Under the pieces are notes generated by a model. That model saw nothing but the letters and a program-made list of their open reading frames with translations. It had not been told where the DNA came from and ran no database searches. From a virus (lineage: Duplodnaviria > Caudoviricetes), in the IMG/VR virus record IMGVR_UViG_3300001580_001418, positions 1 through 64,000 of that record: 64,000 nt of DNA, one strand, 5' to 3'. How positions within the stretch are numbered: the first letter of the stretch is position 1; every line of letters starts with the position of its first letter. This document shows positions 3,783 through 59,757 of this stretch, piece by piece. The position numbers and the translations under genes are program-made.

Positions 3783-6038
3783 TTATTGGAAAAGAAATAA
3801 CTGCCTCTCATCCACCTTCTTCGGCTTTGGTACTTTCTTCGTCTTCGCCTCAACCACCTTCTTCCACATATCGTCATAAAGCGTGTTGACAACCCGCTCT
3901 GGAAGCTTCGTCGCAGCATCAACCACCTCTCTTACCTGTTCCTCCGTTACGGGTTCTCCGGCAAAGGCAGCATCAAGCAGCTCCTTCTCCCTTGCCCGCA
4001 CTTCTGCCCATATCGCATCCAGGCTTCCCTTCACGCCGTCAACTCCAGATACAATCGATCGGGCAAGATCGTAATACAGGTCTCCACCTTCGGTGTTATA
4101 CGTTGACAGTCCATCATCAAGCAGCTCTCCTTCAATCGCCAGGCTGGTTTTGAACTTCTGTGCAATCAACTTCAAGCCCTTCTCCTGAATGGTGCCACCG
4201 TAAATAAGATAATAGACCTTCACCGGTTTCACCTGACCTATTCTCCATGACCTTCTCGAAGACTGTCTTAGCACATACACTGAATACTCAATCTCATGAA
4301 ACACGATCGTTTGAAAGTCGATCAGGTCAAGCCCTGTCTGCACCAGCTTGGGATTGGTAATTAGCGCATCAAGCCCTTTCACCCTCGAGGCAATCCAGGC
4401 CTCGCGCTTCTCTGGCTCTACATTGGCGTGCAGCACTTCCGCCCTTATACGATTCTCCTCGAGCAGCTTCCTCAACCGCTCCGTCATATCTCTTGTGTCC
4501 GTATGCGAACAGTAAACCAACACCTTTCGCCCAAGCGCTTTCTCACCTTTGATAATATCAACAAGCTCCTGTTCTTTCGGATACGTTCTCTCCTCTGGAC
4601 ACTTCCGGGCCATCGCTACAATCTCACCATGCTTATTCCTTACCACCTCTCCGGTCCATGGCTGTTCTGGATAGCAGAGCAGCCCCTGTAGATACTTCGA
4701 CAGCATCGACTTATCTCCTCGCTTCAAACATTCATGCAATGCTGTTATCAAATCAGACTGGAATTCTTCGTATCCTTCCTTCTGCTCTGGTTCCATATCC
4801 AGACTAACGATGAACTCATCATATTTGGGCAACGCTACCGCTATGTCAGCCAACCTCAAAAAGATGCACCGCTCGAGCAAATACTTCGGCAACACTACAG
4901 GGCTAATCCCTGGCCTCTCTCTGATTGTCGTCGAATGCTTTTTCCCCCTGCTCATCAGGTTATCGTCGTAATCTCCATCCAGCTTCCTTCTTGTCACCTT
5001 CTCAACGATTCCATACTGATTGATCCACTTCCACTCATCGTCGTAATGGAAGTCCTTGTGAAACCCCTGCGTAAAGCGGTGGAGAATATAAAACAACGTT
5101 CTGCTATATCCACCAAACAGCGTTCCAATCAGCGACACGGTTTTCTTTGAAGACGATGCCATCATTCCGGCTGCAATCCCCTGGGCAGTTGCTTTTGCCT
5201 TCGCTTCATGCGTCTCATCAATGATGAACAGATCAAAAAACCTCGGCAGGAACCTCTTTACATACTCAGCGATGGGATACCTTTGAACGCCATCCTTATC
5301 GGCCATCCACAGACTCTCGCCACACTTCCTGCACTTACTCTTTTTCCTTTTCAAATCAATCCAAGAAAGATAAATCCCCTCATCATCTATCAAATGGTGA
5401 CCACATCTCGGGCAACTCAGGATCTCTAATATCGGGATGCACTTCACCCTCTCCAAAAGTGAAGCTCCTTTTCTTGGCTTCACCCCGATCGTCGCTCCAG
5501 AATCCCTCAGCTTTCTCACAACAGCAGACGCCTTCCAACTAAAACCAAGCTTCGCACGCTCCCTGCTGACTATGCAGAACAGCGGCTTATCTCTTCGTCT
5601 ACCATTATGAAAATAAAGCTTCTCCAGCCCATACATATCGGCGACATCCCTAAGATGGACCACATCAACATCGTGCAGGGCCAGCCTCACCTCACGTTCC
5701 CACTTCTTCGTCAAATGAGGGGGACAACAAACGAGCACCGTCTTTGCCCTAATCACATGGGCAGTAGCGATCCCCATGAGGGTCTTTCCAGTCCCCATTT
5801 CCCCCACAATCACCGCACTCCGCTCCGATTGCAATACAGTTGCAACCGCGCTGATCGTATCGGCCTGTGCACCAAACGGCCTCCTTTTCAATCCGGCCAA
5901 CCTGTCGGCGTACTTCCATCTGTCCTTCTCTGGTTGAAAAAGAGGCGGATACTCGCTTACTACTCTGTCAACCAGGGCTTCCTTGAACTCTTCAAGGAAC
6001 TCAGACAGCTTAACAACCTTTTCCTTTTTCGCTATCAC
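3783..6038 (-). CDS. SNF2/SF2-family helicase with zinc-ribbon insert
   Basis: GEMGTGKT, IIDETHE, TGLDL, QSSRRSWRIGQ; CPRC/CRKC insert. Confidence 0.85.
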   Translation of the reverse strand: MIAKKEKVVKLSEFLEEFKEALVDRVVSEYPPLFQPEKDRWKYADRLAGLKRRPFGAQADTISAVATVLQSERSAVIVGEMGTGKTLMGIATAHVIRAKTVLVCCPPHLTKKWEREVRLALHDVDVVHLRDVADMYGLEKLYFHNGRRRDKPLFCIVSRERAKLGFSWKASAVVRKLRDSGATIGVKPRKGASLLERVKCIPILEILSCPRCGHHLIDDEGIYLSWIDLKRKKSKCRKCGESLWMADKDGVQRYPIAEYVKRFLPRFFDLFIIDETHEAKAKATAQGIAAGMMASSSKKTVSLIGTLFGGYSRTLFYILHRFTQGFHKDFHYDDEWKWINQYGIVEKVTRRKLDGDYDDNLMSRGKKHSTTIRERPGISPVVLPKYLLERCIFLRLADIAVALPKYDEFIVSLDMEPEQKEGYEEFQSDLITALHECLKRGDKSMLSKYLQGLLCYPEQPWTGEVVRNKHGEIVAMARKCPEERTYPKEQELVDIIKGEKALGRKVLVYCSHTDTRDMTERLRKLLEENRIRAEVLHANVEPEKREAWIASRVKGLDALITNPKLVQTGLDLIDFQTIVFHEIEYSVYVLRQSSRRSWRIGQVKPVKVYYLIYGGTIQEKGLKLIAQKFKTSLAIEGELLDDGLSTYNTEGGDLYYDLARSIVSGVDGVKGSLDAIWAEVRAREKELLDAAFAGEPVTEEQVREVVDAATKLPERVVNTLYDDMWKKVVEAKTKKVPKPKKVDERQLFLFQ

Positions 6039-6052
6039 AGTCCTTCTTCTCC

Positions 6053-9012: not shown

Positions 9013-10038
9013 TTATTGGATTGAAAAAACCTCTCCACTCATCAGATTAAGGCCAACAATCTCGATCTTCAGCACATCTCTTTCCGTAACGGTCTCCATG
9101 GTCTCGTCAACCTCAACCGTCTTTACCTTTTCTTTTCTCACTGTCCCCTTAATGAGTAGGCGCTTCCCGTTCTTCTCGATCAGTCCATCAGTCATTCCAG
9201 ACGCTACGAGAATAGCCAGGTGGCCTTTTCTCAACGGTGCTGCTGGGCGGATCCTTGCGTTACCGTTTCTCTTCACAACAAGATCGAACATCTCACGTTC
9301 AAAACCATCCTCTGCTACCTCCCCGATCATCTCCTCGGCGGTCATCTCAAGGTTTCGGAAATGAAAAAGCTTCTCCGGCATGGCAGACGGCGGAACCTCA
9401 TACCGACAACACTCTCTCGTCAGCTCAAGCCATGGAACATAATCCCTGAACAACTGCACGCTGGCTTTATCAAGGTCTTCCAACGCTTCCCTGTTCAGCA
9501 CAGCATCTTTCTTCTTTCTGCCAAAGATTACTATCTGTCTGAACCGATCAAACTCATCCTCCGGGAACAGGGTTAGCCTCACATCGCTAAACCACGATGC
9601 CAAATACCTCCTCATCGTTTGGTTCAACGACCGAATGGAAATGATCAGGACAAGGACGCCTCCGGTCTGAAGCGTTGGTACTGTATGGGCAACGAACTTA
9701 TTCTCCAGACGGGAAGACTCATCCCAATCATACGGTGGGTTTAAGAACAGGCACGACATGGACCCACCTCTCACGCTTACCCTGAAACTGTCTCCGTGAA
9801 TCACCTTCCCCAAATTCTTCTTAGCTTGCTCAGCCCTCTTTGTGTCCAGCTCAACGCCATAGCTTTCAGCTTGCAAATCACTTGCAAACTGCGCAACCGC
9901 ATCCCCAACACCAGCACACGGATCGTAAATTCGTATCTTTCCATCTCCGGCCCTCCAAAGACAGGACTTTATCAGCTCCACCACCACCTGAGGCGTGGGA
10001 AAATAGCCAAGCTTCTCTTGAGACGCTATACGTGCCAC
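9013..10038 (-). CDS. DUF6094-like SAM-dependent (N6-adenine-type) methyltransferase
   Basis: GYFPTP, YDPCAGVG, YGVELD, LFLNPPY; GTG start after GAGGTG. Confidence 0.75.
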   Translation of the reverse strand: MARIASQEKLGYFPTPQVVVELIKSCLWRAGDGKIRIYDPCAGVGDAVAQFASDLQAESYGVELDTKRAEQAKKNLGKVIHGDSFRVSVRGGSMSCLFLNPPYDWDESSRLENKFVAHTVPTLQTGGVLVLIISIRSLNQTMRRYLASWFSDVRLTLFPEDEFDRFRQIVIFGRKKKDAVLNREALEDLDKASVQLFRDYVPWLELTRECCRYEVPPSAMPEKLFHFRNLEMTAEEMIGEVAEDGFEREMFDLVVKRNGNARIRPAAPLRKGHLAILVASGMTDGLIEKNGKRLLIKGTVRKEKVKTVEVDETMETVTERDVLKIEIVGLNLMSGEVFSIQ

Positions 10039-10042
10039 TTCA

Positions 10043-10450
10043 TCACCTCGCGACTGCCTTCTGGCAGACCTTTGAAATAGGTTGCGCATCGAAATGCAGG
10101 TCTCGTTCAATCCCTAACCCGAACGCACCTCTCACGCTTTGCAGTTCAGACAGCGCAAAATACCCCCACTCATCACACTCGTCACCGAAGATCGAAACAT
10201 ACCCGTAGAAATTCATATCAACCACAGCTCCACCCACGTTCCCGTTCATCTTCGATGCCTCGATCTCGAGCGTCGTTAGGCCACCATTCCCGTCTGCCTG
10301 CTGCACCACGTAATACATCTCCGTGGCCCACCACGTTCCGGCTCCAGCCGGATTGAAAAACTTGCACACCGCGATCGGATCTGAACCTTCCTGGCGACCT
10401 ATCTTTTTGAACTTCTCTTCAATCTCCTTCGTCATCAGTTTCATCGTCAT
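10043..10450 (-). CDS. DUF2958 family protein
   Basis: KFFNPAGAGTWWATE...EWGYFALSEL...GLGIERDLHF. Confidence 0.8.
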   Translation of the reverse strand: MTMKLMTKEIEEKFKKIGRQEGSDPIAVCKFFNPAGAGTWWATEMYYVVQQADGNGGLTTLEIEASKMNGNVGGAVVDMNFYGYVSIFGDECDEWGYFALSELQSVRGAFGLGIERDLHFDAQPISKVCQKAVAR

Positions 10451-16653: not shown

Positions 16654-16845
16654 TCCGCTCACCCCCTTTCGTGCAAGTTGATTGCAACCGACCACCTGGG
16701 TCTGTAAGAACCACCCAATTGCGTACCCTTTAGGCGTTAAAATTCTGTGTTGAGAGCGTTTTACGCAATTGGGTAGTATTAGGGTATTAAAAAAGGTCTA
16801 AAACGCCGTGTACCCCCTGAATTTCGTTTGTAGGATGCCACGGTA

Positions 16846-22120: not shown

Positions 22121-22351
22121 GTGCAATTAAATTGCAAAGGCTTTGCAAGTAATTGCATATATGCAAAGGATTGCAGTCTTAACGTAAATACTTAATATTA
22201 TTACATTTCATTTTTTCTCTCAAAACCATTTCTTTGTTCGTTTTCTGCAATTGATTGCACAAAAATGTTCATAACCCTGTGGAATTGCTGTGGAGTGTTG
22301 ATTGCAAAGCCAATTGTATTAAAAGTGCAACGAGGTGCAATTTGATTGCAT
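22121..22351. repeat. Cluster of phased TGCAA/TTGCA half-sites
   Basis: TGCA cores at 22122, 22133, 22144, 22154, 22162 and 22172, plus further ones at 22246/22256 and 22326/22336/22347. Confidence 0.75.
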
Positions 22352-22523
22352 AAGGGTATGATGGGGCTTTCAGACAAAAAATGCCATCAGCGGGATTACG
22401 AGGTATTCATGCTTCGGTCATCCTTTGCAATTCCTTTTGAAGATTCGGTAGTGACTCATTTTGATTTTTCCGGTTTCAATCCCCGCTTGACACCGAACGC
22501 GCAAACCCTGCAATAATGGATGC

Positions 22524-22763
22524 ATGAGGAGATCAAGCAAACCTCTTACGAAAGACCCCAATCAATTAGCATATGAGATTGCGCGTATCTCCACAGAAGA
22601 ATCAGAACAACCAAAGGAAAGGTCCCCGATCTCGGAATACCTCTCCCAAACTGGCCGCAAGGGTGGATTGAAAGGCGGGCCAGCAAGGGCAAAGAAGCTA
22701 TCTTCAAAGAAACGTAAAGAAATAGGCAGAAAAGCTGCAAAGGCTAGATGGTCTAAGAGTTAG
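22524..22763 (+). CDS. Small basic KGG-type protein typical of these IS ends
   Basis: GRKGGLKGGPARAKKLS..KRKEI..KAAKARW. Confidence 0.75.
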   Translation: MRRSSKPLTKDPNQLAYEIARISTEESEQPKERSPISEYLSQTGRKGGLKGGPARAKKLSSKKRKEIGRKAAKARWSKS

Positions 22764-23223
22764 AAGCATATTCCATTTCTGCTTCTTCCAAATCTAAAGT
22801 AAAACTAAAAGACATCTGTATGGGCTTTCCAGGATTCCGATTCTCGTTATAACTATCTATGTCAGTTTTAAGCTGTCTACAATCTCCAACAACCTGCTGA
22901 CGCCTTTGTTGGAATGCAATTTCCATATGCTGTCGGTCCGCAGTTCGAATATCTGCCCATAATGGGATCTGTTTACCATTCCGTTCTACTTTGGCTACGT
23001 GTTTGGCACGTACTGTCCGGCCCTGTGGATCAATGATATGTTCCTCGCGCATTGCCTGGGCCAACTGATTAGCACATTGATCAATGACGGCAGATGGTTG
23101 TGGTTGCCATAGTCGCTTCGAAACAGCCCAAGCAGCTATTTCATGTGTGGAAGCAGGCCAAGGTTGACCTGATTCCATGTAAGTATCTACAATCTTTTGT
23201 AATTGTTTATTATACACAGCCAT
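22753..23223 (-). CDS. Hypothetical protein, third gene of the higBA operon
   Basis: Overlaps the higA stop; GAGGT RBS. Confidence 0.7.
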   Translation of the reverse strand: MAVYNKQLQKIVDTYMESGQPWPASTHEIAAWAVSKRLWQPQPSAVIDQCANQLAQAMREEHIIDPQGRTVRAKHVAKVERNGKQIPLWADIRTADRQHMEIAFQQRRQQVVGDCRQLKTDIDSYNENRNPGKPIQMSFSFTLDLEEAEMEYASNS

Positions 23224-24367
23224 TTTCTACCTCCTTATCTTTGAAAATAGGGGGTGTCTGCCCCCAACCATCTGTTAAGGCTGATTGAATTATAATATGC
23301 CTCACCTTGTCTAACATTTTGCGATGCATTGACCACGGTATTTCCTTTCGAAATTGGAGTTGACCAACAACAATACCCGGATGTACCCCAATTCGTTTCG
23401 CAAAATTGACAATTTTTTGTTTTCCATAAAGAGGATGAATCCGTAAAATAAAATCGTTGAGTGCTGAATGAGTAACTAAGAATTCTGTGGCGAAAATATC
23501 TGCCTGCGCCTCGGTTTCAGTTATTTGTTCCAAAATCTGAGTTTCATCTCCGACAAGATCAGTGTCTAATGTTATATCCTTCAGCCCGTCCCGCCGTTTT
23601 ACATGGCCCAGTTCATGGGCAAGGGTATACCAAAACCCATCAATTCGGTCAAATCGCAGAGAAAGCACTATGACTGGAGTCCTTTCATTAAGCCAAAAGG
23701 TAACGCCGTCAATTCTTGTCTGCGGTAAATGTTCGGCTATGATGAAACGGATGCCAGATTCTGCCAGAATTTTGGGAACGTGCCTTATTTCTGGCACGCT
23801 GGTGAGTAGCATCTTTAGTTGTGTCAAACCATTTTTAAACGACTGATTAGAAAATGATTTTGCATGTACAGCATATGCAAGTTGCTTAGCCCTAAAGAGC
23901 CAAGCCTTATGAGATGGAAGAATTTCTTGTGTTCCCCTACGGGCTGCATGAGGATACTCAATAGCCTTGCCCAAGTTGTCAACTTCAAAGAATCGCATTA
24001 CTCTCTTCTCAAGAACCTCGATGTTTTCCGATGGTTCAATCCAATGTCGTTTAATCATCTCCTTGATTGGGGCAATTTGATATAACTTAGCACGTCTAGA
24101 AATCACATTATCGGTATCTTGTGTGCGCCATAATTGGTAAGCAATCTCTAGGTTCATCCAATACTGCGCACTAGTATCGAACGCCTCCCCAAGAGCCTTC
24201 GCTATTTCAGGCGAAATGGGTCTTTTCCCAAGGACTAATTCATTAACTAGGCTAGGTAGTCGACCGATGATTTCGGCCAATTCAACCTGAGTCCAATTAC
24301 GAGCCTCTAATTCTTCCTTAATGAACTCCCCTGGCGGAAAAACTTCGGCTATTTTTCTATCGTTCAT
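23210..24367 (-). CDS. higA: HigA-family antitoxin: Xre HTH plus ImmA/IrrE metallopeptidase
   Basis: PPGEFIKEELEARNWTQVELA...YWMNL; FWYTLAHELGH. Confidence 0.85.
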   Translation of the reverse strand: MNDRKIAEVFPPGEFIKEELEARNWTQVELAEIIGRLPSLVNELVLGKRPISPEIAKALGEAFDTSAQYWMNLEIAYQLWRTQDTDNVISRRAKLYQIAPIKEMIKRHWIEPSENIEVLEKRVMRFFEVDNLGKAIEYPHAARRGTQEILPSHKAWLFRAKQLAYAVHAKSFSNQSFKNGLTQLKMLLTSVPEIRHVPKILAESGIRFIIAEHLPQTRIDGVTFWLNERTPVIVLSLRFDRIDGFWYTLAHELGHVKRRDGLKDITLDTDLVGDETQILEQITETEAQADIFATEFLVTHSALNDFILRIHPLYGKQKIVNFAKRIGVHPGIVVGQLQFRKEIPWSMHRKMLDKVRHIIIQSALTDGWGQTPPIFKDKEVENGCV

Positions 24368-24384
24368 GGCATTCCCCTCCCCAC

Positions 24385-24681
24385 TTAATGGTAATCCTCA
24401 ATGCAAACAATAATCACGATCTTATGAGGATTATTCCCCTTAAATTCCAGAATAAGTCTCCATTGGTCATTTAGACGTATTGAATGTTGGTGTTTCCTGT
24501 TGCCTTTCAGTTTTTCAAATCTAAGAGACTTTTGGCTATAAAAATCTCTTTCATCAAAGGCAGCCCTTATTTGTTGCATGCGTTTTCTGAATGCCTTAAC
24601 AATACCTGGCTGATACCCTCCATCAAAGCCAGAATCAGTTTCCAGCCTATCAAGGCTGTTATCCTTAAAAATCACCTCCAT
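24385..24681 (-). CDS. higB: HigB/RelE-family toxin
   Basis: SLRFEKLKGNRKHQHSIRLNDQWRLI...IEDYH. Confidence 0.9.
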   Translation of the reverse strand: MEVIFKDNSLDRLETDSGFDGGYQPGIVKAFRKRMQQIRAAFDERDFYSQKSLRFEKLKGNRKHQHSIRLNDQWRLILEFKGNNPHKIVIIVCIEDYH

Positions 24682-24706
24682 TCCCAACAGATCACCTCTT
24701 GAAGCT

Positions 24707-24778
24707 AATATACAAGGTTTAATTGAAGATGTCAAGTATAAAATACTGAAATTCACGAATTTCAAAATTTCAGTATTT
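24707..24778 (-). promoter_or_regulatory. higBA promoter with upstream palindrome
   Basis: TTGACA(24735-24730)-N17-TATATT(24712-24707); 13-bp inverted repeat AAATACTGAAATT at 24741-24753/24766-24778. Confidence 0.65.
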
Positions 24779-24815
24779 ACAATATCCAAATTGCTCGAAT
24801 ATAATAGAACCTTAG

Positions 24816-25406
24816 AATGTTCCAGAGGAAAAACGTGGCCTGTTCGGATATGGGGACGTGTGGACGTGGGTTGCAATGGATGCAGAGACAAAACTTGTTC
24901 CTTCATTCATGGTAGGGAATCGCGACGCACAAGATGCGAATATGTTTATTGATGATCTCGCCTCTCGTCTTGCTAATCGGGTCCAACTCACAACCGATGG
25001 GAATAAAGTTTATCTTGAGGCAGTCGAGGGAGCATTTGGGTGTGATATTGACTACGCCATGCTGGTTAAATTATATGAATCAACCCAGGATGAAACTCGT
25101 TACAGTCCAGCGAAATGTAACGGATGCAAGGCAACGACGATCACCGGGATTCCTGATTTTAAGCATATTTCAACGAGCTATATCGAACGTCAGAATTTAA
25201 CGATGCGGATGGAAATGAGGCGATTTACCAGGCTAACCAATGCCTTTAGCAAGAAAATAGAGAATCACGCCTTCCATTTGGCACTTCATTACATGTATTA
25301 TAATTTTGTTAGGATTCACAAGACGCTGAGAATGATACCGGCAATGAAGGCAGAAGTTACGGATCACCCTTGGTCGGTTGAAGAGATCGCGGGGCTTCTT
25401 AACTAA
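24816..25406 (+). pseudogene. 5'-truncated IS1-family transposase
   Basis: GYGDVWTWVAMDAETKL, QLTTDG, STSYIERQNLTMR, RRFTRLTNAFSKK; the frame is closed by TAG at 24813, so the N-terminus is missing. Confidence 0.8.
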
Positions 25407-25411
25407 AAATG

Positions 25412-26434: not shown

Positions 26435-26631
26435 TGTTTTCTCCTTTGCTTCAATATTGCATCGTTGGGAAGCTATTTTGTCTGTTTGTAGCACTCCACA
26501 ATATTTTTATACCATAAATTTCAAAATGCGTCACTACCCGGGAATGAGCCACACGGTTTTTAATATATACCATTTCAATACTTTTTGGAAGTGAGTGAGC
26601 AGAGGGAAGTCACCATAACACTTAACAGGGT

Positions 26632-37455: not shown

Positions 37456-37659
37456 CTAATCCTCTCCCATACAGATGCGGATATGCTTACAGCCCATCCA
37501 CGGAATCACAAGCCCCTTTGCGCCCTGATCAACTCCTACCGTCATATCGTTATTACCAACCACAAGCCCACTTTGAAGGCTGAAATTATTCCCAAAGCCA
37601 ACTTCGATCGACGCCAGCTTTTCGTTTCGTTCCTTTTCCGCTTCTCTTCGTTTCATCAC
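37456..37659 (-). CDS. Small tail-associated protein
   Basis: Translationally coupled ORF. Confidence 0.5.
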   Translation of the reverse strand: MMKRREAEKERNEKLASIEVGFGNNFSLQSGLVVGNNDMTVGVDQGAKGLVIPWMGCKHIRICMGED

Positions 37660-39575
37660 TCAACCTTTCCTTGCAGCGTAATAACTGTCTGCATCTGCCC
37701 CGACTTGGCATCCTTACTTCTTGTCCAGCTCGCAATCATCCCGTCCCTCACCGTAACTGCCGGAATCTGCTCACCCCTACCAGCAGGCAACGTCCCAAAC
37801 TCAGCTCTCCATCCAATATCAACATCAACGTCCTTGGGCAACATCAACTGCCGTTCAATCGTATACTGATAACTCACAGCATTCCTTTTTACTTCGGTAA
37901 GAAGTGCCGCAGCATCTGCCCAAGTACAAATATTTGGGTTGCTCACTACCAGTGCTGCAACGTCCATTGACCCTTGAGAACTCGGCTTTTCTTCAGCATA
38001 AACCTGTAATTTTCTATAAGGTTTGGGGTGTTTTGGCACCCTTCCCTTTATATTGTCCACCGTTGAGGTATGCTTTCCATCCCCAAGCTGTCTAAGCAAG
38101 CCACCGAGCGTCCTATGATACGTAACCTTCTGATACAAATCGTTCGTAATCTGCCTATAAAATACATATCTTTCCTCAACTACTGCCCGAGCCATATATG
38201 GGCCGCCTGGGGCATCTCCCTCTTGCATCCACCACCAATCGCCAAGGTCCAATTCGTAATACGTTTCCTTCCCGTAACTTGTTTGCCTGAAGCAATCCGA
38301 CTCCCGACTCATTGTCTCAGCAATAAGGTTTCCGTTCGGAGCGTAAACCCAGGTCTCCTCAATTTTATCCACCTTCTGTTTATAGTACCTACTTGGAGTA
38401 AATCCAGGGGCATAAACAAGCATCCATGTGTATCTGCCAGTCTCGGTTACTCTCTTAGTCATTCTTGGCTTGTCAAACTGCTCGTCCAAAAATTCATACG
38501 TGTACGTCTCCATTGAATCATACGTGGTCACATCGGGAAGCCCACTGACCGAGAGGAGACGATTCTGCGTCGTCACATGCCTCGACAGCAAAGCCTTGTT
38601 GTTCCCAAATGGGTCCAACCGCCAGTTTTCTTCGGTCGTCGTGTAATCGGACATCGGCTGCCCCATCGGTAACTGTACGTTGTATTCCCCCGTACCAGAC
38701 AACCTTGTTCCGAGGAACCTGTTGACCGCACTCATATCTCCATTCATTCGTAAATACATCTGCATTCCGCTCTCAGACCCGATTGTATTCCTTACTATGA
38801 CACTCTTTTCCGCTTCCACCCTACCCTTATATTTCGATCTATCCCATTCGCCCAACCCACCCATCACCTTGATATATGTCACCTTGCTATCGTAGTTGAA
38901 CGTTTCTTTTTGGCTCGCGTGGGAAATCTTATCGAAGGAAACCGAACCATTCCGATACGGCTGGTTGAAAATGTAAAGGACTCCCTCATCGATATAAATC
39001 GTGGGTTTCAGAAAATTAACTACAGAAACGATCGTGTCAAAATAGGAAGACTGAATGTCCGCACTTACCTGCCTCAACCAGTACGAGCGCACGTTGCAAA
39101 TTAATTGCAACCCCATTCTCGCCACCAAATCGATTATCACATCGCTTGACGACCACCCCCCGGCAAGCGTCCTCTCGTTGCACACCTTGATCAACGGGAT
39201 ATAATCAAGATACGAATAATCGACCACCATATTACTGCCAGAATTGGCAATCTGAAACTCTTCGAGTTCATTGGGGGTCATCGACATATACATCAGGCTC
39301 TTCGATGGCGCCTTTCTAATAACATCCACCACCTTCGAGACCCCACCTATCACGGTCTGGTAACCCTCTGGACCAGAATTATACTCCCGTGTCGTCACAA
39401 ACCCATTTATTCCTCTTATCGTTATGTCAGACCCAGGCGGATAGCCAGCCTCAACACTCGGCAAGGTGAGCGAGAAATCTTCTCCAGCGGATTCTTTAGC
39501 CCTACTGATTACATAATCAGATACAGGCGTGATTCCGAATGATAATTCCTTAATATCAACCAATCGACCCATCAA
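37656..39575 (-). CDS. Tail hub/baseplate-like protein
   Basis: 639 aa, directly after the tape measure gene. Confidence 0.55.
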   Translation of the reverse strand: MMGRLVDIKELSFGITPVSDYVISRAKESAGEDFSLTLPSVEAGYPPGSDITIRGINGFVTTREYNSGPEGYQTVIGGVSKVVDVIRKAPSKSLMYMSMTPNELEEFQIANSGSNMVVDYSYLDYIPLIKVCNERTLAGGWSSSDVIIDLVARMGLQLICNVRSYWLRQVSADIQSSYFDTIVSVVNFLKPTIYIDEGVLYIFNQPYRNGSVSFDKISHASQKETFNYDSKVTYIKVMGGLGEWDRSKYKGRVEAEKSVIVRNTIGSESGMQMYLRMNGDMSAVNRFLGTRLSGTGEYNVQLPMGQPMSDYTTTEENWRLDPFGNNKALLSRHVTTQNRLLSVSGLPDVTTYDSMETYTYEFLDEQFDKPRMTKRVTETGRYTWMLVYAPGFTPSRYYKQKVDKIEETWVYAPNGNLIAETMSRESDCFRQTSYGKETYYELDLGDWWWMQEGDAPGGPYMARAVVEERYVFYRQITNDLYQKVTYHRTLGGLLRQLGDGKHTSTVDNIKGRVPKHPKPYRKLQVYAEEKPSSQGSMDVAALVVSNPNICTWADAAALLTEVKRNAVSYQYTIERQLMLPKDVDVDIGWRAEFGTLPAGRGEQIPAVTVRDGMIASWTRSKDAKSGQMQTVITLQGKVE

Positions 39576-44330: not shown

Positions 44331-44377
44331 CTCTCACCCTCTACGCATCAGCGTAAAATCAAACCAAAAAAACTCAT

Positions 44378-45125: not shown

Positions 45126-45602
45126 TTATGGCAGGACAGATTCCCGCCAGACATAGACGTTATAATCAATCGCTTCCACGTTCACTGTATCCGCAGCGGC
45201 CTCGGGCAGTGACCGCGAACCCCTAAATCTTGGAATTAAGACGTTTCCTGTCGGCGTCGGGTTAAGCTCATCGTGAGAAAAATCAAGCAGTTCAATTACA
45301 TCAATATTCAGCTCTTCCTGAACCTCATCGACCATTTTCACAAGCTCCACCCCATACTTGTCTTTTGCGATGATCGTATTGCAATTAATTTGCAAAAGGC
45401 TCACACAAAAGATCCCCTGCCCGACTCGGAATAGCGGAATATCTATCCACTTCCAATAACCAGAGACCTCATTCTTAATCCGTTCTTCTAACGTTTCATC
45501 CCCCGGTGCAGAATAGTTAATATAATAGTTCGCGCTCAATCGCTCCCTGAGAAACTTGTAAAAACTTCTTTTGATATTCAGCTCTCGGTCTTTATCTAAC
45601 AT
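45126..45602 (-). CDS. Putative tail terminator
   Basis: Synteny and size. Confidence 0.45.
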   Translation of the reverse strand: MLDKDRELNIKRSFYKFLRERLSANYYINYSAPGDETLEERIKNEVSGYWKWIDIPLFRVGQGIFCVSLLQINCNTIIAKDKYGVELVKMVDEVQEELNIDVIELLDFSHDELNPTPTGNVLIPRFRGSRSLPEAAADTVNVEAIDYNVYVWRESVLP

Positions 45603-45603
45603 T

Positions 45604-46053
45604 TCACACCCAAACGTTATGAATGTTCGAAAGAAGCCTCTCACCGATTTCTTTCGCAGATTTGTCAAGATCCTCTTGGGTCAATCTTACGAACCCCAAC
45701 GGCTTCGTCCCTGGATGAAAAACCCTATGAGCAAAAATCGTCTCTCCATCAATTTCAAACTTCAGTGCTCCGCCTTCCTTTGCCTCGATAACGTGAGGCC
45801 GTGTCCCAAACTCAAGAAACGTTACTTCTTTCTCCTTACCATCAGGGCTAATTTCCCAAACAATCGCATTCTCCGTCTTGTGATAGTGAATCGTCCACGA
45901 AGCGGACGTCTTGCCTGTTTTTCTTGGCGTTCTTGCCGCAATAACTGTCAAAAAATACGTGGCAAGGGCATACGTTTGAGTCTCGGCAACAGAGAAAAGC
46001 CTCAATGTTCTTCTGATCTTTTCCTTCAGCTCTCTCGTCTCAACGCTTATCAA
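45604..46053 (-). CDS. HK97 gp10-like neck protein
   Basis: TPRKTG...FLEFGTRPHVI...HPGTKP. Confidence 0.75.
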   Translation of the reverse strand: MISVETRELKEKIRRTLRLFSVAETQTYALATYFLTVIAARTPRKTGKTSASWTIHYHKTENAIVWEISPDGKEKEVTFLEFGTRPHVIEAKEGGALKFEIDGETIFAHRVFHPGTKPLGFVRLTQEDLDKSAKEIGERLLSNIHNVWV

Positions 46054-49714: not shown

Positions 49715-49768
49715 AAATAAGGAAGCAGGGCGAGCTGCAATCTAATTGCAACCTACAGCCCACCCTGC
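49715..49768 (-). terminator. Hairpin terminator after the major capsid gene
   Basis: GCAGGG...CCCTGC stem then TTCCTTATTTT. Confidence 0.5.
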
Positions 49769-49782: not shown

Positions 49783-50904
49783 TTACGATGAGCTCAATGT
49801 CACTGTTGCAAAGCAGTCGCCTTGCACACACTTTTTTGCGTACCGGCTCATCATGCCCCTGACAGGCTGCATGGTATTCGGGTCGATCAGGAGCGGAGTC
49901 GTGTACAGCGGTATATACGGAGCATAGACATACCCCGTGTCAAGCCAGGATCCTCCCTTGAACCCAAGGAGCATCTTGTTGGTCTGATACCAAGGGTGCT
50001 TATAAACGACGAACCTATTCTTCAGGACGCCGAATCTGTGGATGCCTACATTGAAAAGCGCATCATCGACCGTCTCTTCGAGTTTGAAGCCCTCGAGCTT
50101 TTCAAGACGGGTGCAGGTGTCCGAATCAGACACGATCCATGTGGCGTTCCGATACCTCTTTTTGAAAATGAGGTTATTCGCATCGATGATCGCATCATAC
50201 AGGGTCGCCTTATAGATCTTCGGATCGATGTTGATCCACGGAGCAATAGCGGGCATATTGATGTTCCAGTTCACGTTCCCAGCGCTCGCATTCAAGGTCA
50301 TGTCGTCGATGATGATCATATCGACTTCTCTGATGATTTCATCGCCAGTCACTGCCATCAGCTCGCTCTCGGCATCGAGTCCATGATAAGCTCGGAGATC
50401 CTGCTGGGCCTCAATCGTCCACTTTGCCTTCAGGGCCTTTTCTTCAGCGCTGATGTCAACGCTCGAAATGTGAAAATTAATTTCAGCAATATCGCCAGTC
50501 TCAGGCGTCCTGTCAGCGTAGTTCTTTGCAAGGGCACCTGCCTGATCAAGGCGATCGTCAACAGCGATGCTCCCCTTTGCAGTCCCATACCTGAAATCCA
50601 AGAAGAAAGCCTTTCCGGTCGGTTGGGACATCGGCTGCACAGAACAAAGATTCTGAGCGATCAACTTCGGGAAGATCCGCCGAACCAATGGAAATGCAAA
50701 CGTCGGGAACGCACCAACATTGGTGATCTGCGAAGTCTCCTGCAAATAATTCAGATACCATTCCATGTTCTCCAAGAGAACCTCGGTCTGCAGACGTTTC
50801 TGCTTTCCAAGGGGAGACCCATCCTCAATGCCCTCGGTAAGATAAGCCCACTTCTTGGTCCTCTCAGCGTTTTCCTCGATCAAATACTTCATTTTGGGGT
50901 CCAT
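49783..50904 (-). CDS. Major capsid protein, T4 gp23-like
   Basis: PLVRRIFP...VQPMSQPTG..F; LKAKWTIEAQQDL; YAPYIPL; RGMMSRYA. Confidence 0.9.
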   Translation of the reverse strand: MDPKMKYLIEENAERTKKWAYLTEGIEDGSPLGKQKRLQTEVLLENMEWYLNYLQETSQITNVGAFPTFAFPLVRRIFPKLIAQNLCSVQPMSQPTGKAFFLDFRYGTAKGSIAVDDRLDQAGALAKNYADRTPETGDIAEINFHISSVDISAEEKALKAKWTIEAQQDLRAYHGLDAESELMAVTGDEIIREVDMIIIDDMTLNASAGNVNWNINMPAIAPWINIDPKIYKATLYDAIIDANNLIFKKRYRNATWIVSDSDTCTRLEKLEGFKLEETVDDALFNVGIHRFGVLKNRFVVYKHPWYQTNKMLLGFKGGSWLDTGYVYAPYIPLYTTPLLIDPNTMQPVRGMMSRYAKKCVQGDCFATVTLSSS

Positions 50905-50958
50905 ATTCGAAATTCCTCCTTTCAAGTGTGTTTTGTTTACGCATTTGCGTCCGTTCTG

Positions 50959-51008
50959 AAAAAACAAAAAGCCTGAGCAATCCCCCATTGGGGACTTTCC
51001 CAGGCTTC
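50959..51008 (-). terminator. Terminator-like hairpin between scaffold and capsid genes
   Basis: AAGCCTG..TCCCC..GGGGA..CAGGCTT followed by TTTGTTTTT. Confidence 0.55.
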
Positions 51009-51044
51009 TCACCGTCGTCTTCGCCTGTTAAACTTCCTTAAAGC

Positions 51045-52385
51045 TTATGCAGTGCCGGCAGCAGTCTTTTTCCGAGCGACATCTTCAGGAACACCAGCGA
51101 TCTGTCTCTCTCGGATTTTCTTCGCATCCATTTCGGCATCATGCTTATCCTCGTCCAGAACCTCACCCTTTCCCTTCGGCTTCTCTTTCTTGGGGTCCAA
51201 TTCCTCAACGAGTTTCTGGATCCGTCCCTCTTCTGCAACAACCTTCTTGTCTACTTCGTCAACGGTCTTGCAATCGGCAAGGGCTTCCACAAGAAGCTTC
51301 TCGTGCTTCTTGCCAGCAGTCACTTCCAGGATCCTCTTCTGAACCTTCTCCTTCTCAGTAACCGATTTCTTCTCGTTCTCCATCTGCTCTTTCAGGGCCT
51401 TGTTCTCGGTTTCAAGACCAGACACTTTCCCTTCGAGTTCGCCCATCCTCTCCGCTATTCCTTCTTCCTCATCACTCTCCAATGCCCCCTCGGGCATATA
51501 GGGCTTAATCAGTTTCCCGATTTCGACGAAGGTTCCCATCATCCCCTGAAATTCCTCAGAATTCTTCACTTCCTCGATCACCTCTTTCTTGACCTCTTCC
51601 TTCTTTGCCTCAACTTCCTTCAAAATCCTGGCATCGAAGTCTTTCTGCATCGTCTCGCGAATCTCCTTCTCCTTCTTCTCCACAGATTCCTTGACGAGCT
51701 GCTCACAAAGGTCAGGATAAGCCTTCCTCAACTCCTCAATGTTTTTAATTTCCATACTCGATGAACCTCCTTTCGTTTTTTGTGTTTCGCAGATTTCCTG
51801 CTTGCAGCCATCACATGGACCGCATTCTAAAATGTTTACCACTTCCACTTGCTCAGTAACTTGAGTGACCACGGCATCTTTCGTCGACTGCCCAATCACA
51901 AAATCAAACGTCTTGAGCGTCAAATCCTCTTGAACAATGTCCGCCATCTTCCCTTGCCAGTTGCCCTTTAGAACAGAACCAAAGGCTCTACTCGAAAGTC
52001 CAATCCTGCCACCAGCTCGAATAATCTCCTGCAAATTTTTTCCGCCAGGCTCAGTATTTAAAACGGTCGCCTCTCCAAAATAAACCTTTCTCCCCTCAAG
52101 GACCTGCTTCTCAATCCCGGTCAGCATGGCAGCGGTATTCTTGATCGTTGATTTCCCATCTCCTGGATGATCAGCTTCACCATAAACGCTATTCTCCGCC
52201 ATCATAGGTTTCAGCTTCTCTATTTCGCGGTCAAGAATATGCTCACGATACACACGACCGTTACCATTTATTTCGTCTGCAACCGTAAAAATTCCTTTCA
52301 CTCGCATCCTGCCACCATTCTTTGCAGAAGCCTCTTCGAGAATGGTAAAGGCAACCGGCATCGTCTCGATCAATAGTTCTTTCAC
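51045..52385 (-). CDS. Prohead protease (T4 gp21-like) fused to scaffold
   Basis: NGNGRVY, GEADHP, GLSSRAFGS, FDFV; acidic coiled-coil C-terminus. Confidence 0.88.
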   Translation of the reverse strand: MKELLIETMPVAFTILEEASAKNGGRMRVKGIFTVADEINGNGRVYREHILDREIEKLKPMMAENSVYGEADHPGDGKSTIKNTAAMLTGIEKQVLEGRKVYFGEATVLNTEPGGKNLQEIIRAGGRIGLSSRAFGSVLKGNWQGKMADIVQEDLTLKTFDFVIGQSTKDAVVTQVTEQVEVVNILECGPCDGCKQEICETQKTKGGSSSMEIKNIEELRKAYPDLCEQLVKESVEKKEKEIRETMQKDFDARILKEVEAKKEEVKKEVIEEVKNSEEFQGMMGTFVEIGKLIKPYMPEGALESDEEEGIAERMGELEGKVSGLETENKALKEQMENEKKSVTEKEKVQKRILEVTAGKKHEKLLVEALADCKTVDEVDKKVVAEEGRIQKLVEELDPKKEKPKGKGEVLDEDKHDAEMDAKKIRERQIAGVPEDVARKKTAAGTA

Positions 52386-52430
52386 CCTCTCACCTCCTTT
52401 CTGTAAGCGTAACCACAAGACAAAACACTT

Positions 52431-54358: not shown

Positions 54359-55081
54359 TTACCTCCCCACTGGTCTTGCGGCAGTCTTAACCGCCGTGAG
54401 ACCGGCACCAACGACCTGCGAACCCGCACCTTTTGCGGAACCCACGGCCTTACTTCCGCTTGCCTTTATTTGGCTGAACACCGCATTCGCCCTCGCTTGC
54501 AAACTGATTGCAACGTGCATGGCAGCTCGAGATTCTTTCCCGGTAGAACCCTTCGCCTTGTTAACAGCAGCCCTTCTCATTCCTTCAAGGGCACCGATCT
54601 TCTTGTTGGCTGAGAGTCCATTTGCGTCCAGCTTTCCCTGCTGAGCCTTCGGTATGTACGACTCGTTATACTTCTGGATACCATGTTTCAAGACTTGCGT
54701 CTTATTGGCACCGCTCAGCTTACTATAATTTGCCGTGTCCAGCTTTCCTCGAGCATTATAGAATTCCCTTGCGTGAATCTTTTCGCCACCAACAGTGACC
54801 TTGTGGGCAGAGATGCCGGAACCACCGACACGTTCTTTACGAAACTTTTCCCAAAACTTTTTTTCGTTCGAAGTCATCGCACGAGCCTTGGGAAGCTCGC
54901 CCCAACCTTTTCCTGTTGTCTTACCACTTTTGGCAGCACCACTCTTTCTACCACCGCCCAGCGAACCGCCCCTCATCCCCGGTCTTCCCTTGTGGCCCCA
55001 ATTCCCACTTCCGGCGCCGCCTTCAAAGAGCCTCACCTTAACCTCAGAGACAATGCTCTTTACAAATTCCTGGTTGATCAT
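54359..55081 (-). CDS. Basic protein carrying the GG.GSGN tag
   Basis: RLFEGGAGSGNWGHKGRPGMRGGS. Confidence 0.7.
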   Translation of the reverse strand: MINQEFVKSIVSEVKVRLFEGGAGSGNWGHKGRPGMRGGSLGGGRKSGAAKSGKTTGKGWGELPKARAMTSNEKKFWEKFRKERVGGSGISAHKVTVGGEKIHAREFYNARGKLDTANYSKLSGANKTQVLKHGIQKYNESYIPKAQQGKLDANGLSANKKIGALEGMRRAAVNKAKGSTGKESRAAMHVAISLQARANAVFSQIKASGSKAVGSAKGAGSQVVGAGLTAVKTAARPVGR

Positions 55082-57729: not shown

Positions 57730-57973
57730 CAATCCCCATTTCCTCGAGCGTATCGACCACCGCATCGGGATAACCGGTCTCGCCGGGTTTAACCATTTTG
57801 GTCCCATCGACAGTGACGCTCCCAACTTCATCTGAAACCTTTAACGCCATGGCTTTACCATTTAAACCAGAAAACTTCGGATTTTGAGAAACCAATCTTA
57901 CGATATTTCCCTCAATCATTAAGACCACTATCGCTGTTCCATCGCTACTTATTCCGTACTTCATCCCTTTCAT
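57716..57973 (-). CDS. Small protein downstream of MuF-peptidase (candidate immunity)
   Basis: ATGA overlap with the MuF gene. Confidence 0.55.
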   Translation of the reverse strand: MKGMKYGISSDGTAIVVLMIEGNIVRLVSQNPKFSGLNGKAMALKVSDEVGSVTVDGTKMVKPGETGYPDAVVDTLEEMGIDVVG

Positions 57974-59757
57974 GACACAAACACCTTCTTGTAGATTTCG
58001 GCTATCTTCGGGGCCTTTCTCTCAAGTCTTCCTCTGTCAACTACGTACATTGCATAACCCTCAGCAAAACCTTCGCGCGGCTTAGAAGACCCATATCTCG
58101 TAATCTTTCCCTTACTGGCATTTGCTACCCAAACGGCGCGTACAACTCCAAATATCTCCGCAACGGAATGACCGAATTCATGTAGAAACGTTGACTTTGA
58201 AACTCCACGTGCAAGCACTATCTCACCACTATTGCTATCATGGAATCCATCGACGCTTTTCCAAAGCTTACCACCAGCTCTCAGGTTGGCAAGGTCAGTA
58301 ACCTCTGCCACTCCACTCAAAAAAGTTATGGCCCTTACCTCCGTCCCGACCAGGTGTTTCTCAGGCAACATAGCCAACGTCTCATGCACAAACTTCTTAT
58401 CCGCATCACTTCCAGAAACAAGAAGTTTCTTTGAATCAAGAATCTTCTTGACCTTATCAGGCGTTAATCCATATCCACCCCTCTGCACTCTTGTGGCCGG
58501 GAAAATAACGACACCAGACTTTAGGAGCGCCCTCCCATATCTCTCCTGAGGCTGCCCAGGAAATTTATTTCTCAACACAGCTACCGCTTCGCCTAGACCA
58601 AACTTCTTACCCTGGCCTGCCATCTCACCCTTTAACCAATCGGCCATCTGACTTGATCCAATTGCCCCATGCCCAGCAATACCACCACCAGGGAGACTGC
58701 CACCACGCATCCCAGGACGACCCTTGTGCCCAAAATTACCAGAGCCGGGGCCGCCTTCGAGAAGCAATTCTTTTTTAACCTCTTCAACGATCGATTCAAC
58801 AAACTTCGTTTTCTGAACTTGCCCGCCCGGCACATAATAAATCTTGTGCTTCTCCATGAAGTCGATCATATCGGCGTTCAGATCACGACGCATCCGAATC
58901 AGTTCCTTCTTCTGATCACCACTTGTGGCACTGATCATTCCTCTAAGTCGATCAATCTCGGATGACATTTGACCAAGTTTGTCACGTTCATTGTCAGACG
59001 GTAGGCGATAACCTTGAGGCGGGGCAACCAGCTTCGGACCTTTAATGACGTACAGTTCAGGCTTTGGCTTTTCCTCCGCATACTCAAAACGGAGCTCGCA
59101 CCTGCAATTAGAAAGACAGCGCGAAGTGCCATCTCTCGGGACGGCAGGCAATGTCTTTTTTGTATATGGGCCACCCGCAGCAAGTCTGATACAGTCATCA
59201 CAATGCCTCGCCTCCCTTAAAATCCATCGAATCTTCACAAACTCAGGAGACCCATCAACCTTACCATGATGAAAAACACCATCCAGCGTCTCTGTATACA
59301 TGGACAGACGGTCTTCTATGCCCATGACCAATGCGTTCTTCTTAATGTCCTCGACGAATCTACCAAGGTATCCGAACTCTTCGGCCTCGGCACCTTTCAA
59401 CCACGTCTTGTCCTGTTCCCAAATCCCGAATGGATTCCCAACAGACTTAATTCCTAATCCATAAGCCTTCTCCCAGGCATCCTTAATCTCAGAATGCCAC
59501 AGCGTCTCCATCACTTCAGCTGTGATTTCTCCCTTCTGATAAGAACCAAGAATACCGAACAGGGCATCCTTGAACTCTTCTTTTAAGCCGTCATAATCGG
59601 AGACAGCCTGTGCAATCATCTTCTTGTCCAGATTCGTACGCAGACTTCCTATCAACCTAACAAGCGTGGACATGAGAATCGCCTTCTCGTTGGCAAACGT
59701 TCTCCGGCCACCAAATGATTTGCCTTCTGTCAGGTTGCAAGCTAATTGCAAACTCAT
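57970..59757 (-). CDS. MuF-like head morphogenesis protein with internal tag and C-terminal zincin metallopeptidase
   Basis: HCDDC...CLSNCRC; LLLEGGPGSGNFGHKGRPG; HEFGH...YG...EGFAE. Confidence 0.8.
   Translation of the reverse strand: MSLQLACNLTEGKSFGGRRTFANEKAILMSTLVRLIGSLRTNLDKKMIAQAVSDYDGLKEEFKDALFGILGSYQKGEITAEVMETLWHSEIKDAWEKAYGLGIKSVGNPFGIWEQDKTWLKGAEAEEFGYLGRFVEDIKKNALVMGIEDRLSMYTETLDGVFHHGKVDGSPEFVKIRWILREARHCDDCIRLAAGGPYTKKTLPAVPRDGTSRCLSNCRCELRFEYAEEKPKPELYVIKGPKLVAPPQGYRLPSDNERDKLGQMSSEIDRLRGMISATSGDQKKELIRMRRDLNADMIDFMEKHKIYYVPGGQVQKTKFVESIVEEVKKELLLEGGPGSGNFGHKGRPGMRGGSLPGGGIAGHGAIGSSQMADWLKGEMAGQGKKFGLGEAVAVLRNKFPGQPQERYGRALLKSGVVIFPATRVQRGGYGLTPDKVKKILDSKKLLVSGSDADKKFVHETLAMLPEKHLVGTEVRAITFLSGVAEVTDLANLRAGGKLWKSVDGFHDSNSGEIVLARGVSKSTFLHEFGHSVAEIFGVVRAVWVANASKGKITRYGSSKPREGFAEGYAMYVVDRGRLERKAPKIAEIYKKVFVS

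Follow-up and report, generated by a model that had tools for sequence, protein, structure and literature searches.

Exact TGCAA-N4/5-TTGCA palindromes scattered over a temperate phage of deltaproteobacteria are conserved in their arms and may be docking points for a phage protein

The window analysed here, a stretch of 64,000 nucleotides at the start of a 94,080-bp contig, belongs to a temperate phage of deltaproteobacteria, which encodes an integrase and an S24 repressor and one relative of which is integrated beside host genes. Copies of a short exact palindrome lie along it, both inside genes and in the gaps between them (Table 1, in which the putative major capsid gene, 49783-51012, is named by position). 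A sequence-only reading of the window had described these copies as TTGCAA-N5-TTGCAA, and all seven of the perfect 17-mers that it listed were found again (six are marked as perfect in Table 1 and the seventh starts at 22132, within the hexamer array), with an eighth at 86812 on the same contig, beyond the window; none appeared in 100 dinucleotide-preserving shuffles. Three of its near-perfect copies (16671, 22121 and 49735) do have a single mismatch, but the fourth, at 22335, departs from the 17-mer at two positions, yet has a perfect TGCAA-N5-TTGCA core. The fixed 17-mer had to be given up as the underlying unit in favour of TGCAA-N4/5-TTGCA, in which the N4 spacer defines a second class, and 22 exact copies of this unit (12 N5 and 10 N4) are present on the contig, compared to a third-order Markov expectation of about 0.3 per genome (0.11 N5 and 0.21 N4). 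Arm pairs of TGCAA and TTGCA with spacers of N0-3 or N6-8 are absent from the whole contig and one-mismatch copies of the core are near background (6 and 3 seen compared to 4.6 and 4.75 expected), suggesting that recognition is all-or-none.

Table 1. Palindromic sites in the window and genes for candidate readers elsewhere on the contig
Feature	Position	Strand	Context
Perfect N5 site	5829..5845		Inside helicase gene 3783-6038, minus strand
Perfect N5 site	9871..9887		Inside gene 9013-10110, minus strand
N5 core site	16671..16687 (core 16672-16686)		Intergenic; one mismatch to 17-mer
Hexamer array	22121..22176		Six TTGCAA-like hexamers at steps of 11, 11, 10, 8 and 10 bp
Predicted sigma-70-type promoter, TTGAGA-17-TAATAT	22195..22223	minus	Between hexamer array and site 22246
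N4 site	22246..22259		Upstream of predicted promoter
N5 core site	22335..22351 (core 22336-22350)		Far edge of cluster
Perfect N5 site	39094..39110		Inside gene 37656-39575, minus strand
Perfect N5 site	45379..45395		Inside gene 45126-45668, minus strand
N5 core site	49735..49751		32 nt past putative major capsid stop, 38 nt before next start codon
Perfect N5 site	54497..54513		Inside gene 54359-55081, minus strand
Perfect N5 site	59735..59751		2-3 nt past portal stop; codons 3-8 of gene 57970-59757
ParB_N protein	contig 78663-79508	minus	Possible clamp partner
307-aa protein	contig 81876-82799	minus	Central domain resembles ParB-type helix-turn-helix (model)
HTH_17 protein, 65 aa	contig 90812-91009	minus	

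Most isolated copies lie within coding sequence, as had been claimed, and the 10 intragenic sites compare with a mean of 1.19 and a maximum of 5 in 200 within-gene synonymous-codon shuffles; chance, base composition and codon usage are ruled out by the dinucleotide shuffles, the Markov model and the codon shuffles. Isolated copies occupy two different reading-frame positions (site offset from gene start) in unrelated genes and so are not one repeated peptide, an origin which could be excluded. Low-GC relatives have a homologue of gene 57970-59757 without the six codons that form the site, and the encoded amino acids are therefore dispensable. The 4-7 kb spacing reported earlier holds in the structural and replication regions, but over the whole contig the evenness of spacing is a trend only and not significant (CV 0.67, P = 0.064). 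The gap that had been seen, from 22.4 to 39.1 kb, does contain zero sites, and a transposase fragment lies in it at 24858-25406. Megablast of the 36-44 kb part of the window against phage and plasmid collections gave no match, and a full-text literature search for TTGCAA as a phage operator gave nothing relevant.

At nine pairs of sites in homologous positions the arms were identical at 90 of 90 bases, compared to 53-73% identity in the flanks; the spacers varied in sequence and in length (N4 to N5) and the arms never covaried. The arms, and the arms only, are under strong purifying selection. On the MAG contig C70, the homologues of sites 5829 and 9871 have the same arms with another spacer (matching at 1 of 5 bases for 9871), and the homologue of site 16671 has an N4 spacer instead of N5. 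The entire 17-mer at 54497 is the same in relative L005, where the flanks are 58% identical, and site 59735 is kept in seven relatives (L005, L006, L027, L028, L034, L037 and L039) with six different spacers between them. The same gene positions are occupied through deep divergence (terminase about 35% identical) and in G001, a distant relative, the homologue of the putative capsid gene is likewise followed by a site; one 52%-identical relative has lost the site at an SbcC-like gene. That sites are kept at the same places in relatives implies that some factor reads this word.

The sites are phage-specific. In a host-like MAG, 10 of them lie on two related prophage contigs (51 kb) compared to 5 in the remaining 4.35 Mb, a density about 170 times higher on the prophage contigs, and the five outside them are at chance level, in stretches which have no genes in common with the phage. 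This density at chance level outside the prophage contigs led us to reject a host global regulator as the main reading. MAG contig C100, which runs from integrase to terminase, keeps 6 sites. Counting the motif in prophage against host, codon-shuffled controls and conservation in relatives had each been suggested beforehand as checks, and the outcome of all three upholds the earlier idea of a dispersed, selected and phage-specific signal with a dense cluster at 22.1-22.35 kb.

In this cluster the hexamer array contains two N5 and two N4 core sites, sits within a 1.26-kb stretch without a convincing gene, and has its overlapping hexamers phased at 10-11 bp. The promoter predicted beside it is a consensus match only, in a region whose count of such matches is not above that of shuffles; predicted promoters in general are consensus matches at background frequency, and neither sigma-70 promoter scans nor terminator scans gave anything exceeding shuffles.

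Our preferred reading, which we hold to be an evenly balanced proposition, is that the sites are docking points on duplex DNA for a phage-encoded, sequence-specific DNA-binding protein. We infer binding from the dyad symmetry of the sites and their phasing, and the binder and its effect are likewise put forward as suggestions. The half-sites TGCAA and TTGCA are identical and about one helical turn apart, and the reader may have two loosely tethered DNA-binding domains or be made of two cooperating subunits, either of which would account for N4 or N5 at one place. The hexamer array and flanking sites at 22.1-22.35 kb bracket the predicted leftward promoter and may form an operator of high occupancy or a region of nucleation, while the single sites every few kb, in tiny intergenic gaps or coding sequence, would extend the reach of the protein genome-wide, for regulation or marking, in the way that KorB reaches promoters from dispersed RK2 operators.

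A change of spacer length at one site is, however, unusual for a dimeric DNA-binding protein and is fitted more simply by a hairpin, and it is possible, if unlikely, that the sites are short hairpins in RNA (or in single-stranded DNA during replication) with a 5-6-bp stem and a 4-5-nt loop, which may be recognised by a phage or host factor or, alternatively, may punctuate long leftward transcripts (for their processing, for their stability or to control how the next gene is translated). Almost all genes have the same orientation, and therefore nearly every site would be transcribed if long leftward operons read through; the loop differs between homologous sites (4 or 5 nt), which a hairpin would easily tolerate. 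Many sites lie 1-13 nt past a stop codon, several lie exactly 10 nt before a start codon, beside the ribosome-binding site, and one follows the putative capsid gene, which is a typical position for a stabilising hairpin. Set against this, the stem sequence does not vary among the 22 copies or in any of the relatives, the core showing neither compensatory nor G-U changes, and the stems are weak (-3.3 to -8.7 kcal/mol) and lack a following T-tract. Seven sites are deep within genes, the arms in the cluster overlap and are mutually exclusive, so that the hairpins could not all form (and there is no convincing gene there), and no Rfam match at gathering thresholds was found anywhere in the window.

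The geometry of the N5 form is also that of the sigma-54 consensus, TGGCAC-N5-TTGCA, of which it matches 9 of the 11 specified positions by eye, but it is scarcely conceivable that the sites are promoters, whether these would serve sigma-54 or a factor particular to the phage. The sites lack the conserved GG of the -24 element, the strict spacing of sigma-54 promoters is not kept in the N4 form, though N4 and N5 interchange at one site, and several sites lie directly against a ribosome-binding site, where a transcription start would not fit; the majority of N5 sites are well inside genes, and no promoter-like element common to the sites was found downstream of them.

Partition, which the sequence-only reading had offered as one function, is weakly supported. 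The linear phage-plasmid N15, whose prophage is a plasmid that does not integrate and whose sopAB operon is conserved, has centromeres at four dispersed sites, SopB palindromes which are scattered over the genome including the late region and for which effects on gene expression have been reported. The phage studied here likewise has palindromes dispersed across its genome, the late region included, and a ParA-like ATPase (25412-26494; PHROG E 4e-34) and a 67-aa protein, possibly ribbon-helix-helix-like as judged from its sequence, are encoded 3-4 kb from the cluster. Nevertheless, we think it very improbable that the sites are dispersed parS-like centromeres for plasmid-type partition by this ParA. 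Unlike sopAB, its gene lies in a non-conserved, low-GC island with no GC skew, a transposase fragment, a HigB/HTH-M78 pair and zero sites, and the phage has an integrase and the S24 repressor and an integrated relative. Neither ParA nor the 67-aa protein was found in G001 or the MAG (both incomplete records), yet both keep sites; this, with the integrase, makes partition the weakest of the functions offered.

For the docking protein that we favour, the most likely reader is one of the phage's own DNA-binding proteins, and there are three candidates, which we rank with the 307-aa protein first, the HTH_17 protein second and the ParB_N protein third. Residues 78-212 of the 307-aa model match the ParB DNA-binding domain on parS (6s6h; Z 8.7), Spo0J (Z 8.5), the KorB DNA-binding domain on its operator (Z 6.6) and SopB on DNA (Z 5.4), which is middling for an all-helical domain (Foldseek E 0.2-1). 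Its homologues are present in every site-bearing relative whose sequence covers that region, and in the MAG prophage. Distant family members are on contigs without a palindrome array (L073 and L074 had neither arrays nor alternative palindromes), longer family members have no Pfam domain, and a profile comparison of this family with the ParB_N family showed no similarity. The HTH_17 gene is followed 2-10 nt later by a site in six genomes, one of them a remote remnant; its distant homologues (L081 and L082) had no arrays and no alternative palindromes, and scanning viral contigs with the HTH_17 alignment gave no relatives.

The ParB_N protein has a match to Pfam ParB_N, a CTPase-fold domain (E 1.1e-7; 32.2 bits with a cut-off of 26.3), its model matches Noc, ParB and KorB over some 190-206 alignment columns (E 2e-7 to 5e-5), and in five genomes its stop codon is followed 6 nt later by a site. 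It carries GGEHRWKAAR, the canonical ParB motif being GERRxRAA. A scan of viral contigs with this protein gave no relatives, and its co-occurrence with the sites does not extend to all relatives, as the gene is missing from C100, which keeps sites; the other MAG matches to ParB_N are on unrelated contigs. A more specific version of the docking reading, which we consider rather improbable, is that the sites are phage-specific loading points of a split ParB-type machine, in which recognition of TGCAA-N4/5-TTGCA would fall to the 307-aa protein, and this would recruit the ParB_N protein, a separate molecule, or load it. The ParB_N protein may then spread along phage DNA only, silencing at long range or else guiding the variable sugar/aminotransferase/glycosyltransferase cassette that lies between the two genes, so as to modify phage DNA as self.

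Self-marking could also be the direct purpose of the sites, as recognition or loading points of a DNA-modifying system, with the DNA methyltransferase (1891-3120) or the ParB_N protein and its adjoining variable sugar/aminotransferase/glycosyltransferase cassette as candidates, but we regard this as quite doubtful. A DNA methyltransferase is indeed encoded, the ParB_N gene adjoins a glycosyltransferase, the same slot in L069 holds a DegT aminotransferase, a radical-SAM enzyme and a HerA-like ATPase, and all-or-none recognition is enzyme-like. Phage ParB homologues are, moreover, reported to activate thymine dioxygenases and to co-occur with glycosyltransferases and terminases (PMC13229309). 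However, a Tet_JBP dioxygenase was looked for in the contig and not found, a modification target needs neither conserved positions nor a phased cluster, the enzymes could equally act on virion proteins, and the MAG prophage lacks the cassette and the ParB_N gene, yet keeps sites.

Among known systems, KorB of the IncP plasmid RK2 is a ParB-family protein which loads at OB, an exact, contiguous 13-bp palindrome of fixed geometry with some copies far from promoters, and reaches distant targets (PMC11790492). The phage too has an exact palindrome scattered over a mobile element, and encodes a ParB_N protein and a protein with a modelled ParB-type DNA-binding fold. Its spacer, however, is of 4 or 5 bases, free in sequence and changing in length at homologous sites, the DNA-binding fold is on one protein and the ParB_N domain on another, one relative keeps its sites without having the ParB_N gene, and no KorA-like partner is known.

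Cluster O mycobacteriophages have more than 30 copies of a 17-bp repeat, TGTTCGG-NNN-CCGAACA, with invariant arms and a variable centre, which lie between genes, near gene starts and inside genes with no promoter link seen and no known function, and these phages encode a ParB-like domain protein and have a structural operon that includes glycosyltransferase and methyltransferase genes (Cresawn et al. 2015, PMC4351075). The sites described here are also many, intergenic and intragenic, with invariant arms, a variable centre and no tie to promoters; the Cluster O repeat differs in sequence, in its 7-bp arms and fixed 3-bp spacer and in its higher density (about one per 2 kb), and Cluster O phages show no obvious temperate character, in contrast to this phage with its integrase and repressor. 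The stoperators of Cluster A mycobacteriophages (e.g. L5; discussed in PMC4351075) are repressor sites dispersed in temperate-phage operons, some off promoters, for which a transcription block has been proposed; they are asymmetric, oriented with transcription, and match the operator at the immunity promoter. The phage sites are similarly many and dispersed, some away from promoters, but they are palindromes, and no TGCAA site lies in the immunity region (contig 91302-91437), where another palindrome, TACGC-N4-GCGTA, is found.

Scattered exact phage palindromes go back in the literature to 2015 or earlier (Cluster O), without a reader or function, and the present family is an unusually clean handle on them, with invariant arms, drifting spacers that even change length, sites held through deep divergence, a density contrast of about 170-fold and three candidate readers that can be put to the test. 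Should a ParB-type protein prove to be the reader, long-range control in the manner of KorB, or self-marking, would be carried over from plasmids to temperate phages; should it be the small HTH_17 protein instead, or a factor acting on RNA, this would be a new kind of genome-wide phage punctuation. Sites of the N4 class are found in the short intergenic gaps of early genes, and 9 of the 10, as read from their sequences, have a pyrimidine-purine step at the centre, which, like the phasing in the cluster and the lack of covariation between arms, speaks for recognition as duplex DNA; one sub-family of N4 sites only has in common the motif followed by N6 and then RAC-S-AT-RG.

The seven perfect TTGCAA-N5-TTGCAA 17-mers listed in the sequence-only reading were all found at the coordinates claimed for them, with none arising in 100 shuffles, and its near-perfect copies at 16671, 22121 and 49735 proved to carry one mismatch each; an eighth perfect 17-mer lies at 86812 on the same IMG/VR phage contig, which is 94,080 bp long and of which the window covers the first 64 kb. 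Once the outermost base was relaxed the true unit was seen to be TGCAA-Nx-TTGCA, with 12 copies on the contig at x=5 and 10 at x=4 (third-order Markov expectation 0.11 and 0.21 copies respectively) and none at x=0-3 or 6-8. Among the 5-base palindrome arms of the genome TGCAA leads by a wide margin, with 22 copies compared to 5 and 4 for the next arms. Synonymous codon shuffling within genes gave a mean of 1.19 intragenic sites compared to the 10 observed. One-mismatch variants were at background (3 and 6 observed against about 4.7 expected) and thus the motif is all-or-none, in contrast to a typical degenerate operator family.

Relatives of the phage were obtained via terminase, portal and other proteins; one was found integrated next to host housekeeping genes and another was divided between two contigs of a host-like genome titled 'Deltaproteobacteria bacterium' (MAG). 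A similar density in the host genome, which the sequence-only reading had named as refuting its claim, was not seen: of the 15 sites in this genome 10 lie on the pair of prophage contigs, which total 51 kb, and the remaining 4.35 Mb holds 5 single sites, against about eight expected by chance, with no gene in common with the phage in the 6-16-kb stretches around those five. At nine homologous site pairs 90 of 90 arm bases were identical and the flanking 150 bases were 53-73% identical, while the spacer sequence was free (TACAG vs TCGTG, ATCAC vs GTGGT, GCTAA vs TCGGT) and its length shifted at two places (16672, N5 here and N4 in the MAG; 90796, N4 here and N5 in the MAG). Seven relatives keep the site covering codons 3-8 of the post-portal gene, with six different spacers among them, but a low-GC branch (L029-L032) starts the protein without those six codons and so the encoded residues are dispensable; this site is a DNA signal written into a coding sequence that can do without it. 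In the window the six extra N-terminal codons of this gene (59735-59757) consist of the palindrome. TGCAA-N4-TTGCA sites also occur in G001, a much more distant relative with a GC content of 56% and a terminase about 35% identical, where they lie in the post-portal gene and downstream of the capsid-gene homologue.

The two spacer classes are placed differently. N5 sites are mostly intragenic, in the replication and structural regions, with two just downstream of genes, and N4 sites occur in a cluster at 22.1 kb and between closely spaced genes of the early region, often 1-13 nt past a stop codon and 10-40 nt ahead of the next start. The cluster comprises six TTGCAA-like hexamers at 22121-22176, in steps of 11, 11, 10, 8 and 10 bp, plus the sites at 22246 and 22336, and the 1.26-kb stretch that contains them has no convincing gene. 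A consensus sigma-70 promoter is predicted on the minus strand at 22223-22195, between the array and site 22246, although sigma-70 consensus matches around the cluster were no more frequent than in shuffles. Flanks beyond the core were not conserved, except in a sub-family of N4 sites where six bases are followed by a RAC-S-AT-RG element and often then by G-rich and T/A-rich runs; this element is more than just a start codon, being kept even where its ATG reads ATA. Several signals come together in a regulatory hub at 66640-66790, upstream of a gene for a 180-aa protein in the direction of the terminase: a pair of N4 sites separated by 33 bp, which is also conserved in the MAG, L059 and L061, a third site with one mismatch, a run of T and a copy of a second palindrome, TACGC-N4-GCGTA.

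Coordinates of sites and genes on the phage contig (positions above 64,000 lie beyond the window; L061 is a contig of a relative)
Feature	Coordinates	Remark
N5 sites inside genes	5830, 9872, 39095, 45380, 54498, 59736, 86813
N5 sites just downstream of genes	16672, 49736
Early-region N4 sites	66698, 66731, 69045, 70489, 71233, 78643, 90796
N4 sites with RAC-S-AT-RG (examples)	66698, 66731, 69045, 70489; L061:8151, 8302, 10583, 10616
TACGC-N4-GCGTA, perfect copies	44342-44355, 61345-61358, 66650-66663, 91420-91433	four copies
Helicase	3783-6038
HTH plus M78-peptidase protein	23210-24367	island
HigB-like toxin	24385-24906	island
Transposase fragment	24858-25406	island; plus strand
ParA-like ATPase	25412-26494	island
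Possible ribbon-helix-helix gene	26632-26835	island; 67 aa
Head protease	51045-52418
Portal	59754-61340
Large terminase	61725-63686
ParB_N protein	78663-79508	Pfam E 1e-7
307-aa protein	81876-82799	no Pfam match
HTH_17 protein	90812-91009	65 aa
S24 repressor	91438-92250
Integrase	92722-93825

The sites might act as RNA hairpins, a reading kept alive by homologous sites with a 4-base spacer in one genome and a 5-base spacer in another and by the position of sites just past stop codons and beside ribosome-binding sites. However, the arms never covary, those of the cluster overlap and are phased by one helical turn and so could not form hairpins all at the same time, stems formed in the RNA are weak (-3.3 to -8.7 kcal/mol), and a flexible pyrimidine-purine step lies at the exact centre of 9 of the 10 N4 sites; for these reasons recognition as duplex DNA is placed ahead of the RNA reading. 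No Rfam family matched.

A dispersed protein-binding code, as the sequence-only reading had it, is the best-supported account of the sites as a whole, with the binding of a protein being the part that we infer. Control of transcription is suggested because the cluster surrounds the predicted promoter and because the three-site group at 66.6-66.8 kb, beside its TACGC site, lies upstream of genes leading to the terminase, and single sites inside long operons are suggestive of roadblocks or loading points for a spreading protein. The nearest mechanistic model is KorB of plasmid RK2, a CTP-dependent clamp of the ParB family which reaches promoters from distal operators (PMC11790492), and the nearest descriptive match is the repeat of Cluster O mycobacteriophages, which has invariant 7-bp arms around a variable 3-bp centre, occurs in 34 copies between and inside genes and has no known function, in phages that also encode a ParB-like protein (PMC4351075). 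The present case is set apart by its varying spacer length, two positional classes, a temperate lifestyle and ParB-like domains that are found on two separate proteins.

Partition, which had also been proposed, is the least likely of the suggested roles. Its performance by the neighbouring ParA is unlikely, since ParA and its 67-aa neighbour were not found in G001 or the MAG, the two relatives searched; the search covered these two island genes alone. Both genes belong to a low-GC island (22400-27000, about 41% GC, without GC skew) which forms the left part of a gap from 22.4 to 39.1 kb containing no TGCAA site. Nearly all genes are on the minus strand and GC skew is strongly negative along the contig, the exception being the island at 22-26 kb; the skew (-0.2 to -0.4) persists even over the plus-strand repressor and integrase genes, so the coding strand is not its sole cause, and replication in one direction may underlie it. 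As it encodes this S24 repressor and integrase the phage is temperate, and SbcC/SbcD-like genes and a DnaC-like loader are also encoded past the window.

Neither the S24 repressor nor the Cro-like protein encoded beside it is likely to read the sites, as TGCAA sites are absent from the region between their genes, which instead bears TACGC-N4-GCGTA, copies of which are probably the repressor/Cro operators. Every copy is preceded by a run of T and followed closely by a ribosome-binding site; in one case the copy overlaps the ribosome-binding site of the repressor gene, with half-sites nearby in the immunity region.

The reader was narrowed to three candidates. In the model of the 307-aa protein a helical core (residues 80-215) is predicted with confidence. 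This core aligned with the DNA-binding domains of ParB (bound to parS, Z 8.7) and KorB (bound to its operator, Z 6.6), with Spo0J (Z 8.5) and with DNA-bound SopB (Z 5.4), suggesting a ParB-like fold, and the helix at residues 137-153 hardly varies across 18 homologues. Homologues were present in every site-bearing relative with that region covered, including G001; the family is large (2,888 clusters) and contigs of its remote members have no palindrome arrays. The HTH_17 protein has a site 2-10 nt past its stop codon here, in the MAG, L069, L070 and L080, and also in L073, a remote prophage remnant where a 52% identical domain copy is fused to a larger protein. In that remnant (L073:4445-5265), which also has fragments of protease, tail and post-portal genes, the domain forms the C-terminus of a 264-aa protein, with a perfect TTGCAA-N5-TTGCAA 8 nt on. 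The predicted structure of the ParB_N protein matched Noc, ParB and KorB (E 2e-7, about 200 alignment columns), and in five genomes a site lies 6 nt past its stop codon, but the gene is absent from the MAG prophage, whose sites persist.

Four genes are contiguous in G001: the homologue of the 307-aa gene, the ParB_N gene, a gene with no family match which on our own reading of its sequence we take to be the small terminase, and the large terminase. A link between the sites and DNA modification is possible; thymine dioxygenases are activated by phage ParB homologues (PMC13229309), and no Tet_JBP gene was found in this phage contig. The 307-aa and ParB_N genes are separated, both in this phage and in L069, by a variable set of genes for sugar-modifying enzymes. 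This slot (78663-82799), running from the 307-aa gene and an HNH gene to the ParB_N gene, looks like a swappable modification cassette: its content in this phage is a glycosyltransferase, and at L069:10001-20924 it includes, among others, genes for a DegT aminotransferase, a radical-SAM enzyme and a HerA-like ATPase.
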